A stretch of 25,275 nucleotides of DNA from contig JAPDJZ010000160.1 of NCBI GenBank assembly GCA_029258815.1, positions 1-25,275 of the forward strand, written 5' to 3'. The translations under genes and the position numbers were made by a program. The notes under the pieces were generated by a model. It was not told the origin of the DNA, did not search any database, and worked only from the letters and a program-made list of their open reading frames with translations. Positions 4,030 to 10,275 of this stretch are shown here, one piece after another. Position 1 is the first letter of the stretch; each line of letters opens with the position of its first letter. The DNA is from an archaeon. Its GTDB lineage: Archaea > Thermoproteota > Nitrososphaeria_A > Caldarchaeales > Wolframiiraptoraceae.

Positions 4030-4363
4030 GGGGCGGCGGCAGGTAGGGCCGGGGAGCTAGCCCTTCCCTGTAACCCGAAATGGGCTACACGCGGGGGCCA
4101 GTAACCCGGAGGGGCGCATGCGAGAGGGGAAGACCCGGCGGCGAAGCGCGGGGAGAGGAAGGTGCGCCCGCGCAGAGCCTCGTAGGAGGCCGACCCGCTC
4201 GTAGGGGTGGGCGACGGCCTCCGCGCACGCCGAACCGCGTTAGGCCCGGGAGGGAGCGGCGCTAAGGCGTGGCGGGGCTGCTGCGCGGATCCGTGCTGGA
4301 TCCTCGGCCGCTGCTTCGGGCTTCCCTTCCTCCTTGCCACCCTCCGGGGGCTGCCGCCGCCCC
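4030..4363 (+). ncRNA. Archaeal signal recognition particle (7S) RNA
   Basis: 13-bp terminal helix GGGGCGGCGGCAG/CTGCCGCCGCCCC; Alu motif CCCTGTAACCCGAAA; helix 6 with GTAG loop; helix 8 GAAC..AGGCCC-GGGA-GGGAGCGGC; long helix 5 can be paired by hand; T-rich tract follows. Confidence 0.93.
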
Positions 4364-7870: not shown

Positions 7871-7906
7871 GCCCCGGTTATAGATTTTGGGGGCCGGTAT
7901 ATAGTC

Positions 7907-9070
7907 TTACTCACGGTCTATGTAGCGGGAGGAGAGGGACGCCGGGATGAGGCCGAGGGCGGGGAAGACGCAGATTAGGGCCAGGGCGTATGATAGGCTC
8001 GTGTGAGCTAGGAGGAGGGCGACGGCCGAGGAGCCTAGGAGGGAGCCGGCGTCGAAGGCGGTTAGATGGAGGGAGTTTCCGAGAACCCTGTGCCTCTCGG
8101 GCGTGGCCTGGGCGACGGCCGAGGCGGTTAGCGGGAAGACGAGGCCGTGGGCGAGGCCCGCTAAAGCTAGGCCTAGGCCGAAGAGGGGGAGGCTTCCGCT
8201 TAGCCCGACTAGGAGGACGCTTAGGAGGGAGGAGAGGAGGGCGGCTTTCATGAGGCTTCCCAGCCCGAGCCTCGCCAGTAGAGGCGACTTGAGCAGGGTC
8301 ATCCTAGCGGCGAAGGCGGTTACGTAGTAGAGGAGGAAGAGGAGTATTACGAGCTGGTCCTCGAGCCCGAAGGAGAGCTTGGCTCTGAGCGGGCCGTAGG
8401 CGGCTATGGCGCCGGCCGCGAGGGAGAAGGAGAGGTAGATTGAGGCGAGGAGCATGTTCGGGGCCTTGAGAACGGGCTTGATGCTCTGCCGCTCGACCTC
8501 GAGCCTCCAAGCCTCCCCAGCCCTCCTAAGCTCCTCTAGGAGAAGGGCTACGCCGGCTATCGGCATCGCCGCGATGAGGGCCGTGGCTAGGAGGACCGTT
8601 CTAAGCTCCGCGACGCCCCGGAGGAAGACGCCGATCAGGGGGCCGAGCCAGAAGCCCAGGGCGAGGGAGGCGGTGTAGCCCGTTACGGATTTCTCGAGCT
8701 CGCGCGGGTCGGCTAGAAGCTCGACCGCCGTTAGGAAGAGGACGTGGTTTACGGCCGTGGCGACCCCGTGGATCGCCCGGAAGAGGGAGAAGGAGCTCGG
8801 ATCCCAGCTGAGGCCGTAGCCCGCTATCGACGCCGCGTTAAGCCCGAGGCCGAGTAAGAGTATTTGCAGGATGTTCCTCCTAACGAGCATGGAGCAGGGT
8901 ATCCTCAGGAAGGCCGAGACTAGGAAGGCGAGGGGGATTATCAAGCCGACCTCCTGCTCCGAGGCCCCGAGATCCCGGTAGAGGTAGATGGGGAGGATCG
9001 GGTTAAGGAGGAAGATCGTGCTTATGAAGACGAGGGCCGCGAAGTTGAGGAGCATGAGCCTCGAAACCAA
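7907..9070 (-). CDS. Major facilitator superfamily transporter (start TTG 9070 or ATG 9055)
   Basis: About 12 hydrophobic segments, P.LP.Y..DLGAS start, GLVFP..A..VA..TP..RVLGNS MFS pattern. Confidence 0.85.
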   Translation of the reverse strand: MVSRLMLLNFAALVFISTIFLLNPILPIYLYRDLGASEQEVGLIIPLAFLVSAFLRIPCSMLVRRNILQILLLGLGLNAASIAGYGLSWDPSSFSLFRAIHGVATAVNHVLFLTAVELLADPRELEKSVTGYTASLALGFWLGPLIGVFLRGVAELRTVLLATALIAAMPIAGVALLLEELRRAGEAWRLEVERQSIKPVLKAPNMLLASIYLSFSLAAGAIAAYGPLRAKLSFGLEDQLVILLFLLYYVTAFAARMTLLKSPLLARLGLGSLMKAALLSSLLSVLLVGLSGSLPLFGLGLALAGLAHGLVFPLTASAVAQATPERHRVLGNSLHLTAFDAGSLLGSSAVALLLAHTSLSYALALICVFPALGLIPASLSSRYIDRE

Positions 9071-9271
9071 GGAACCGGAGCACCCCTCTAAAGCAGCCGC
9101 GAGCGAAACCCATCCAGAATCACCGAGATATTAGGATGAAGGCGGAGGGCTTTCCGAGCCAGGGGGAGCCGGAAACGCCCCCTCCACGACCAAGGCTACT
9201 TCAAGCCAGATTTCAAGCACGGAAGAAAAATAAGTTTCATAGGAGCAAGCACCCCCGCGGTCTAAAAACTC

Positions 9272-9300
9272 GAAAAAGCTTATATGACCATGAAAGTCAT
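9272..9300 (+). promoter_or_regulatory. Strong BRE/TATA followed by palindrome ATGAC-N7-GTCAT
   Basis: GAAAAAGCTTATAT at 9272-9285; inverted repeat 9284-9288/9296-9300. Confidence 0.5.
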
Positions 9301-9309
9301 CTTATGATT

Positions 9310-9412
9310 GGGCTGGTGGGGCTTCCCCGGGGGCTCCGTCGGTCCACCACTCATCACGGATCAGATGCGCTCGGAGATTCTTCACGGCCCTCCTTTAGGG
9401 CCTCACCAGCCC
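9310..9412 (-). ncRNA. Box C/D guide sRNA enclosed in a canonical bulge-helix-bulge motif (predicted 72-nt circular product 9323-9394)
   Basis: Minus strand: GGGCTGGTGAGG-CCCT-AAA-GGAGGGC-c-GTGAAGA(C)-14nt-CTGA(D')-TCC-GTGATGA(C')-12nt-CGGA(D)-GCCCCC-GGGG-AAG-CCCCACCAGCCC. Confidence 0.8.
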
Positions 9413-9500
9413 TGATCTAAACTAAAATCGGAGCGTATTCTTGCTTTTTCAAAATTTCGACTCAAAAATTTTAGGTAATTTTATTTAGCCGTTTTAGAGC

Positions 9501-9968
9501 TTATGGTAACCAATCTATTTCGTCTTCATTTACTATCCTGAATCGCTTGCCGTCGAAGACTATACAGGCAATCTCGTGATCCGTAGCATAGGCTAATGCA
9601 TCTTGATCGAAGCCCGATGTAGCCGCTATCGCTAAGTGATCGAAATAGAATTCCTCTCTTCCTTCTTTACAAGCATCTTCAATATCCTTAGCAGATTCAA
9701 TAAGCTTGAAAATATGGTTTCGCTTCACACTACTCTTCATGTCTTTACATTCAATCCATAGATCATGCTCCTCCTTAAAGAGAAGGCCAGACTTCCAATA
9801 TACGTGAACATCGATCTCATAAGGTCTCTTAACCCGGAGGCCATTCATCAAAATATTCGTCTCAACTTTCTCAGCATCAAAATATCTCTTAGCCCATCTA
9901 GCAACCCTCTTCTCAAACTTATGCCCTCTCTTCTGAGCCGCCCGAGCCCTAGACCGAGAAACCGGCAT
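9501..9968 (-). CDS. PD-(D/E)xK restriction-endonuclease-like protein (Mrr catalytic-like)
   Basis: G.KFE..V, EIDV, IECK, ATSGFDQDA motifs; visibly AT-richer than flanking genes. Confidence 0.78.
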   Translation of the reverse strand: MPVSRSRARAAQKRGHKFEKRVARWAKRYFDAEKVETNILMNGLRVKRPYEIDVHVYWKSGLLFKEEHDLWIECKDMKSSVKRNHIFKLIESAKDIEDACKEGREEFYFDHLAIAATSGFDQDALAYATDHEIACIVFDGKRFRIVNEDEIDWLP

Positions 9969-10094
9969 ACCACCAAACTAAAGGCTCACACAAAGATATT
10001 CTTTTTCATAAGGCGTTACACGGCGCGCCGCCAATCAGACTACATAAAAAACCTATCCGAGGCCACGAGCAAAGAGCTCAATAAGCCTATACGA

Positions 10095-10125
10095 GAAGGA
10101 GTGGAAAAAAGGGAGAGAGGAGGGA
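10095..10125 (-). terminator. Pyrimidine/oligo-T tract after tRNA-Tyr
   Basis: Minus strand TCCCTCCTCTCTCCCTTTTTTCC, T6 at 10105-10110. Confidence 0.5.
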
Positions 10126-10150
10126 ACACCCCCACCATCATATTTAAATG

Positions 10151-10275
10151 TCCCGCGGGGGTGATTTGAACACCCGACCATCCGGTTTCTGTCCGCCTGG
10201 TAGGCTGAGGCCCGCGCCTCCCCTTTCCCGGGCGCGGCTACAGCCGGACGCTCTACCAGGCTGAGCTACCGCGGG
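10151..10275 (-). tRNA. tRNA-Tyr(GTA) with 51-nt intron at 37/38 (10187-10237)
   Basis: CCCGCGG/CCGCGGG-A acceptor (C1:G72, A73), TCCGG-CTGTAG|A-CCGGA anticodon arm, GGGTG-TTCAAAT-CACCC T arm; central splice helix CTGT/ACAG. Confidence 0.95.

Follow-up and report, generated by a model that had tools for sequence, protein, structure and literature searches.

The locus at positions 9310–9412 raises the question of what a bulge–helix–bulge (BHB) splice-site motif is doing around a box C/D guide RNA where there is no tRNA. The window, by which is meant the whole stretch of 25,275 nt analysed here, belongs to a hydrothermal-vent MAG that neighbouring proteins assign to Candidatus Wolframiiraptor (Aigarchaeota; order Caldarchaeales in GTDB), a genome that is 70% complete. 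The element lies on the minus strand, 740 nt downstream of a tRNA-Tyr gene on the same strand. Its neighbours are an MFS transporter gene (7907–9070) and a low-GC Mrr-like ORF (9501–9968). The GC content of the stretch that holds the element is 35–48%, as against about 60%. All 21 of the listed runs that hold the locus are DNA metagenomes from hydrothermal vents.

The initial annotation had read the minus strand of this region as a C/D sRNA enclosed in a BHB stem, and every element of that reading is borne out base for base. The outer helix, seen in both the sequence and the fold, is formed from GGGCUGGUGAGG (9401–9412), which starts the 5′ ‘exon’, and CCCCACCAGCCC (9310–9321), which is the 3′ ‘exon’. 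Of its 12 bp (9412–9401/9321–9310) 11 are paired, with an A·C mismatch at pair 10. The central helix then follows with 4 bp between CCCU on the exon side (9397–9400) and GGGG on the intron side (9325–9328), the latter also supported by the alignment. It is bordered by a 5′ bulge AAA (9394–9396) and a 3′ bulge AAG (9322–9324). Beyond the bulges an inner helix of 6 bp is formed by GG(A)GGGC (9387–9393), which also provides the terminal stem of the C/D k-turn, and GCCCCC (9329–9334); here sequence and fold agree, and the alignment supports the 3′ strand. The two 3-nt bulges are thus on opposite strands and exactly 4 bp apart, with a helix on either side (12-bp outer, 6-bp inner), which is the hBHBh′ form of the motif.

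Within the inner helix the boxes C, D′, C′ and D follow one another on one strand in the order of a C/D sRNA, as recognized by a strict C/D pattern. Box C (GUGAAGA, 9379–9385) is followed by a 14-nt D′ guide, AUCUCCGAGCGCAU (9365–9378). A k-loop (9351–9364) then comprises box D′ (CUGA, 9364–9361), a 3-nt UCC loop and box C′ (GUGAUGA, 9357–9351). The 12-nt D guide, GUGGUGGACCGA (9339–9350), which is also supported by the alignment, leads to box D (CGGA, 9335–9338). Guides of 14 and 12 nt and a C′/D′ loop of 3 nt fit the spacer length of about 12 nt (10–14) expected of such RNAs. Boxes C and D are both variants and co-vary, A5 of box C facing G2 of box D, so that an A·G pair (box C position 5/box D position 2) replaces the usual U·U.

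EndA cuts after the second nucleotide of each 3-nt bulge. By this rule, with the tRNA-Tyr control described below, the 5′ cut is predicted between 9395 and 9394 and the 3′ cut between 9323 and 9322. These cuts would give a 72-nt intron, the predicted excised and circularized box C/D sRNA (9323–9394), and ‘exons’ of 18 and 13 nt, 31 nt together. The predicted circle junction joins CCCCCGGGGAA to AGGAGGGCCGUG (9323 to 9394), and the predicted exon junction joins GGCCCUAA to GCCCCACC (9395 to 9322). In the predicted circle a GGGGAAA loop would cap the inner stem.

The polarity of the motif was compared with that of the intron-bearing tRNA-Tyr gene in the same window (10150–10275). In its BHB the exon sequence CUGU (nucleotides 32–35) pairs with intronic ACAG and the 5′ bulge follows CUGU; the 3′ bulge, AA|A38, comes after intronic ACAG. 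The 5′ strand of the element has the same order as the pre-tRNA-Tyr BHB, namely outer helix, central helix, bulge and inner helix. The plus strand, which had been held to give the wrong BHB polarity, does carry the mirror arrangement, and it is without C/D boxes. In the minimum from RNAfold (MFE) the long stem is kept, its register being displaced a little so that the 3′ bulge has 2 nt. At 37, 70 and 85°C the canonical BHB conformer is only 0.5–1.2 kcal/mol less stable than this MFE.

BHB geometry alone proves nothing, since a genome-wide scan that allowed G·U pairs gave 1189 matches against 1186 in a reversed-sequence control, and a second setting gave 1331 against 1316. Generic BHB scans were dropped as a means of finding more members for the same reason. 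The strict double C/D pattern gave 6 matches in the 1.14-Mb genome and none in the control. Long bulged flanks surround only one of these six sRNAs, the element at 9310–9412, the other five having terminal stems of 3–5 bp. Taking a scan frequency of about 3 × 10⁻⁶ per position together with the spacing, the chance that one of six sRNAs would be framed in this way is estimated at about 10⁻³ or less. The conjunction of a BHB and a C/D sRNA is more than chance.

Curated models recognize the cargo weakly. On the minus strand Rfam sR1 scores 21.6 bits against a gathering score of 45 (E = 0.005), and sR14 matches the element with E = 0.2; weak scores of this kind are expected for a new guide set. 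As had been proposed, the element escapes tRNA annotation, both ARAGORN and Rfam at gathering thresholds being silent here. The flanks are not tRNA halves either: no tRNA exons were found around the BHB by ARAGORN or by Rfam at E ≤ 10, and the flanks consist of AT-rich intergenic sequence. No rRNA was found around the element, in the window or in the assembled genome, and the cargo is 72 nt.

Relatives were sought by BLAST, pattern search and a covariance model (R1) in the 76 species genomes of the order. The element is present in four of these, namely the genome of the window (G000), another genome of the same genus (G012), a genome of a different genus with 89% identity (G024) and Pelearchaeum maunauluense (G040). 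Nine more contigs came from metagenomes scanned with the D guide as key. Across the 76 genomes the covariance model returned only the four known genomes and one ordinary C/D sRNA. A related sRNA in G009 has a terminal stem of merely 3–5 bp. A half-site pattern run against all GTDB genomes gave chance bacterial matches only, and no second copy was found in the element's own assembly, contig ends included.

In the homologues both the BHB geometry and the C/D boxes persist, and the changes between copies are compensatory, which favours the splice-site reading of the initial annotation. The other predictions of that reading that could be checked in silico also came out for it. The outer helix is common to all Wolframiiraptor-type copies, in which the single A mismatch wanders from pair 9 to pair 11. 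The outer helix of Pelearchaeum, AGCCGUUAGGG/CCCUAACGGCU, differs at every pair except a G-C/C-G core. This copy has a central helix UCUC/GGGG, bulges AAA and AUA, an inner helix GUGG/CCAC, a degenerate box C (GUAAAGA) and the same D guide. The copy in G012 has the same outer helix, a central helix CCUG/CAGG and an inner helix GGUGG/CCACC, and its boxes and guides are entirely different. In a truncated metagenomic copy (L079) CCCU pairs with AGG and the inner helix is GCGGAGC/GCCCCGC. The 5′ bulge is 3 nt long (AAA or UAA) in all 12 aligned copies. Both 3-nt bulges and the 4-bp spacing are found in 10 of the 12; in the remaining copies, G012 and L081, the 3′ bulge is a 2-nt AG (or AGC in a shifted register).

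The guides and boxes show their own pattern of conservation. The D guide is conserved in all type-1 copies across three genera, Pelearchaeum included, the D′ guide is variable among copies, and the D′/C′ k-loop (CUGA, UCC, GUGAUGA) is near-invariant in the alignment. In the alignment of 12 copies 94% of the cells are paired and six pairs are changed on both sides. None of 500 shuffles reached the pairing value or the double-change value of the alignment, and slid controls were 44–67% paired. The covariation is real but thin, since it comes chiefly from two divergent sequences (G040 and G012); the ten other aligned copies have a common outer helix. In Wolframiiraptoraceae the element forms a small family of patchy occurrence, with different putative C/D cargo behind the same stems. 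That the locus is a C/D sRNA gene with a conserved BHB stem can be held with high confidence.

A conserved splice-site mimic that lacks a tRNA suggests that the tRNA-splicing enzymes probably excise and circularize the sRNA. The element would then be a box C/D sRNA gene with its own transcription, and its precursor would adopt an hBHBh′ processing stem. EndA would cut each 3-nt bulge after nucleotide 2, after which RtcB would seal the 72-nt ‘intron’ as a circle and the two short ‘exons’ as a hairpin of 31 nt. L7Ae, Nop5 and fibrillarin would bind the circle at the k-turn (GUGAAGA/CGGA and the inner stem) and at the k-loop (GUGAUGA/CUGA). The circle would guide 2′-O-methylation, its D guide pairing with the 3′ acceptor strand and CCA of tRNA-Ala so as to place U70 at the methylation position. 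Genes for RtcB and fibrillarin are present. One EndA gene is found in the host's 70%-complete genome and two paralogues are found in relatives, so that the enzyme is probably of the heterotetrameric (crenarchaeal) type. A search with PF09414 for an Rnl3-type ligase gave weak matches only, in frames of about 600 aa that are taken to be DNA-ligase-like. The complete course of events, from the EndA cut through the RtcB circle to an active guide RNP, is read from sequence and is favoured here with moderate confidence. The circle may also be thermostable, and the ‘exons’ may exist only for its release, as the initial annotation proposed.

The same gene could instead encode an ordinary linear C/D sRNA, with a long stem that stabilizes the k-turn in the heat, bulges that are incidental and ends that are trimmed by exonucleases. 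RNP protection and trimming is the published model (PMC7994747), the listed runs with the locus are all DNA metagenomes, and the MFE prefers a slightly different register. BHB geometry is also common by chance when G·U pairs are allowed; it is nevertheless kept in Pelearchaeum, where both the 3-nt/4-bp/3-nt arrangement and the EndA polarity persist despite a changed outer helix. The conservation of two A-rich bulges is more than a stabilizing stem needs, and the host's other C/D sRNAs do with stems of 3–5 bp. A linear sRNA is considered unlikely, although it is an alternative that keeps some weight.

The distribution of the element could also be explained if it were a mobile or recombining BHB cassette, in which case its occurrence would reflect mobility and not function. 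Such a cassette is compatible with the excised, circular guide RNA proposed above. Contigs of four independent vent metagenomes were compared with the locus. The depth over the element in these metagenomes is 5–20 times that of the flanks, and the contigs break at 9303–9307 and at 9413. Loose contig ends run from the same stems into other C/D cargo; in run X9, for example, the cargo behind these stems contains a C′ box, the guide ACGGCUUAGCAG and a CCGA box. Contig breaks at the edges of an element are typical repeat behaviour. The copy in G012 starts its contig, which also speaks for a cassette, and the copy in the metagenomic locus L126 ends its contig. 

The surroundings of the copies bear on mobility in both directions. 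The element is patchy (4 of 76 genomes of the order), and its copies fall into at least four flank types. PhoU and tRNA-Tyr are immediate neighbours in W. allenii, and the approximately 2.3 kb that comprise the MFS gene, the element and the Mrr-like ORF are for that reason regarded as an indel. Relative to W. allenii the element therefore sits in an insertion of about 2.3 kb, beside a tRNA gene and an Mrr-like ORF. The element and the Mrr ORF are both present in a close metagenomic strain (L084). In 17 related loci no element was found beside dnaG/tRNA-Tyr. However, the element has no associated transposase or homing endonuclease, and L126 lacks the Mrr-like ORF, its element standing about 130 nt away from tRNA-Tyr. 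Neither an empty site nor, in the 76 genomes of the order, a hairpin free of cargo came to light. PhoU lies about 3 kb off in two further copies, and the recurrence of PhoU and tRNA-Tyr nearby fits vertical descent with rearrangement. As the explanation of the locus, a mobile cassette is improbable.

A related question is where the stem came from. It could be the remnant of an intron-bearing tRNA gene that has lost its D and T arms, and the locus might even be a decaying pseudogene. As an account of origin this too is compatible with a BHB-processed guide RNA gene, the 12-bp outer helix being equivalent to an acceptor stem (7 bp) and an anticodon stem (5 bp). After the 7 + 5 bp comes an A that resembles a discriminator base, several copies start with GGGCUGGUAG in the manner of a tRNA 5′ end, and a 7-nt loop would remain after splicing. 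The D guide and some other guides of the family match tRNAs, and in one metagenome contig the element is only about 130 nt from tRNA-Tyr. The acceptor sequence GGGCUGG, however, occurs in no tRNA of the assembled genome, no tRNA model matches at E ≤ 10 and ARAGORN is silent. An identity of about 89% across genera, with intact boxes and D guide, points to selection and not to decay. A tRNA remnant is accordingly very improbable as a description of what the locus now is.

The sequences on either side of the stem were read for transcription signals. An AT-rich sequence that abuts the outer helix on the minus strand resembles a promoter. It contains a BRE/TATA-like stretch, GAAAAAG and CAAGAAUA (9436–9450), whose centre lies about 27 nt 5′ of that helix's first G. 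An A/T-rich box (CAAAAATA, TTAAAAT, TTAAAG) is seen between −24 and −33 in most copies of the Wolframiiraptor type; no such upstream box was found in L081 or in the Pelearchaeum copy. An A/T-rich, BRE/TATA-like box near −27 suggests that the transcript may start at the stem. Downstream, a flank at 9264–9309 is conserved in L084 and G012 and in part in L101 and L110. It contains the motif AUAUAAGC(U) (9278–9285) and two T5 runs (9273–9277 and 9264–9268). From its sequence this flank could be a terminator, the promoter of the next gene or a plus-strand promoter, AAGCTTATAT, facing the element. A second TATA-like motif, AAGCTTATAT on the plus strand, is seen at a similar distance on the other side of the element, a point against the favoured reading.

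A functional product of the plus strand, or a palindrome that serves as a DNA element or bidirectional terminator with coincidental C/D boxes, is scarcely credible, for although the plus strand folds comparably (−51.5 kcal/mol, z = −2.6) and AAGCTTATAT lies about 27 nt from its stem start in several flank types, only the minus strand has the four boxes correctly ordered and spaced, with no control matches, the Rfam C/D match falls on the minus strand, the EndA polarity fits that strand alone and the D guide is kept amid varying surroundings.

If the minus-strand product is a guide RNA, its targets have to be sought through its two guides. Positions 2–11 of the D guide form 10 contiguous Watson–Crick pairs with C67–A76 of tRNA-Ala (CGGUCCACCA), and the N+5 rule applied to this duplex gives U70. 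This nucleotide is the partner of G3 in the alanine identity pair G3·U70. The guide A opposite U70 separates tRNA-Ala from the ends of tRNA-Val and tRNA-Ile (CCGGCCCA), and all five genomes examined contain the tRNA-Ala end CCGGUCCA. The match is weak on its own because 7% of shuffled guides score as well as the D guide on tRNA-Ala. The D′ guide of the window's copy gave no convincing target.

The guides of other family members also match tRNAs above the expectation from shuffled guides. The D′ guide of L079 matches the D-loop of tRNA-Ala with N+5 at nucleotide 18 (p = 0.01 against shuffled guides). That of L100/L101 matches GGGCCGGUAG, the 5′ end common to tRNA-Val and tRNA-Ala, with N+5 at G3 (p = 0.02), and an intron-bearing tRNA is matched over 11 nt by the D guide of G012 (p = 0.01). 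The D′ guides of G024 and G040 gave nothing beyond the self-match in their own genomes. In rRNAs of the same genus no guide had a convincing sense-strand match; the host's own rRNA is absent from the assembly, and the target may yet be an rRNA. A match of 11/12 between the Pelearchaeum D guide and a 23S hairpin of another genus was rejected as chance, being not conserved in Wolframiiraptor. It is tempting to go further and see in these copies an autonomous, ‘intron-only’ gene family, a fixed BHB stem with interchangeable C/D cargo that would act as a factory for tRNA-directed circular sRNAs, the best-conserved member methylating U70 of tRNA-Ala and the D′ guides of some variants aiming at G3. 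This extended proposal is doubtful.

Few RNAs other than tRNA and rRNA are, to our knowledge, cut by EndA, namely the SRP RNA of Thermoproteus, the cbf5 mRNA and a single 5′ UTR in Haloferax. Those in systematic work are tRNAs, rRNAs and single mRNAs (PMC7714728). The closest known arrangement is the intron of pre-tRNA-Trp, a C/D sRNA described in Haloferax volcanii and as sR50 in Pyrococcus (Clouet d'Orval et al., 2001, cited in PMC7994747 and PMC7714728). In both cases a complete C/D guide lies between the BHB bulges. The pre-tRNA-Trp guide RNA is freed by EndA, circularized and aimed at a tRNA, all of which is proposed for the present element. As far as it is described in the two citing papers, the pre-tRNA-Trp BHB is in a full tRNA gene with functional exons, and its guides hit positions 34 and 39 of the host tRNA. 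The element, in contrast, has no tRNA, a helix of 18 + 13 nt in place of exons and tRNA-Ala as candidate target.

Longer helices with a BHB enclose archaeal 16S and 23S pre-rRNA, the processing stems of which give circular pre-rRNA intermediates (PMC7038931; PMC7714728; PMC9014305). There, as here, a long helix around a functional RNA bears the BHB; EndA cleavage and RtcB ligation free the enclosed rRNA as a circle and join the flanks. The element differs in that its cargo is a 72-nt guide, that it is a stand-alone unit and that the circle would be the mature form. A further parallel is the Thermoproteus SRP RNA, which is permuted and is circularized via a BHB (Plagens et al., 2015, PMC4731332). 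It is likewise a small RNA, neither tRNA nor rRNA, and it needs a BHB, EndA and circular ligation to mature, as is proposed for the element. In Thermoproteus circularization repairs a permuted gene, whereas the gene of the element is collinear and its circle would be the goal in its own right. No permutation is seen in the window's own SRP RNA (4037–4356).

Circular C/D sRNAs as such are known from Pyrococcus, Thermococcus, Sulfolobus and Nanoarchaeum (Starostina, 2004; Danan, 2012, PMC3326292; Liu, 2022, PMC9014305), and their form, a C/D sRNA circle in a thermophile, is also the end product proposed for the element. The known examples have termini without a canonical BHB, as is usual for C/D sRNAs (reviewed in PMC7994747), and their junctions vary by a few nucleotides; the junction of the element, unlike theirs, would be fixed by the BHB. 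The route to circular C/D sRNAs has been called unclear or has been assigned to a different ligase (PMC7994747; PMC9014305), and circularization in T. kodakarensis requires the ATP-dependent ligase Rnl rather than EndA/RtcB (PMC9014305). A full-text literature search of incomplete coverage found no published free-standing, BHB-framed C/D sRNA. The element is built from known parts, and excision of the EndA type followed by circularization would be a route not described for C/D sRNAs.

Should the proposed mechanism be true, the element would represent a new class of EndA substrate and a second way of making circular guide RNAs, one with a precise junction. It would connect free sRNA genes with the guides of tRNA-Trp introns, being an intron that had ‘escaped’ or been ‘stripped’, and would be the natural counterpart of the engineered tRNA/BHB scaffolds used for circular RNA. 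The U70 target, if confirmed, would be of interest to the tRNA field, as it would place an RNA-guided modification on a universal identity element, the G3·U70 pair of tRNA-Ala. Genes of this kind escape ORF, tRNA and Rfam annotation, and more of them may therefore be overlooked elsewhere.

The box C/D element lies within an indel of approximately 2.3 kb (window 7880-10150) relative to the related genome of W. allenii, in which PhoU adjoins the tRNA. Besides the element the indel contains an MFS transporter and a stretch of low GC content (35-48%) that includes a 155-residue Mrr-like ORF (9501-9968), which gives a weak Pfam match to the restriction endonuclease fold. Of two metagenomic contigs with a copy of the element, L084 contains this ORF and L126 does not.

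Downstream of the element, at a distance of 25-45 nt, the motif AUAUAAGCUU / AAGCTTATAT is conserved and accompanied by T5 runs (9264-9287). Read on the plus strand, this motif resembles a BRE/TATA box located approximately 27 nt from where the stem begins in the antisense direction. Antisense transcription of the element is possible. The flank is followed on the minus strand by a GC-rich (57-61%) stretch of approximately 180 nt (9071-9260) that separates it from the first start codon in the MFS ORF. This stretch contains no long ORF and may represent a long leader or another RNA.

The tRNA beside the element is a minus-strand tRNA-Tyr(GUA) (10150-10275) whose 51-nt intron follows position 37; the gene was detected by Rfam and by intron-aware ARAGORN, having been overlooked in the first ARAGORN pass. 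The BHB of the intron is slightly relaxed, with a central CUGU/ACAG helix, a 5' bulge of 2-3 nt and a 3' bulge of AAA, and no C/D boxes are found within the 51 nt. In the low-GC stretch adjoining this tRNA, Rfam reports a C/D-like match to ceN40 (E 0.37; 9981-10088, minus strand) that is weak and probably due to chance. Elsewhere in the window Rfam identifies a full-length, non-permuted archaeal SRP RNA (4037-4356, plus strand; 103.6 bits).

Genome G009, of the same genus, encodes an ordinary C/D sRNA (L200 1495-1556, minus strand, on contig C21) that has its CUGA-UCC-GUGAUGA k-loop and a portion of its D' guide in common with the element. This sRNA differs in its D guide and in having a terminal stem of only 4 bp, and may be a BHB-less paralogue.

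Elsewhere in the genome that carries the window, the tRNA-Ala(CGC) gene (C8:15620-15740, minus strand) contains an insert of approximately 36 nt that separates the 5' strand of the T-stem from the T-loop, which is a non-canonical position for an intron. A genome-encoded CCA is present in tRNA-Ala(UGC) on C4 and in several other tRNAs. Two paralogous tRNA genes (C16:4250-4420, minus strand; C96:860-1030, plus strand) start with GCCCGGUCGUCUAGCGGCC at the 5' end, and their introns are long or multiple. The D guide of the variant element in the same-genus genome G012 has its 11-nt match at positions 9-19 of these tRNAs.

The rRNA genes of two further genomes of the genus, G002 and G011, far exceed the model lengths, with 23S genes of 3460 and 3862 nt and a 16S gene of 1976 nt (L068, L069 and L070). 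These lengths indicate that Wolframiiraptor has rRNA introns.
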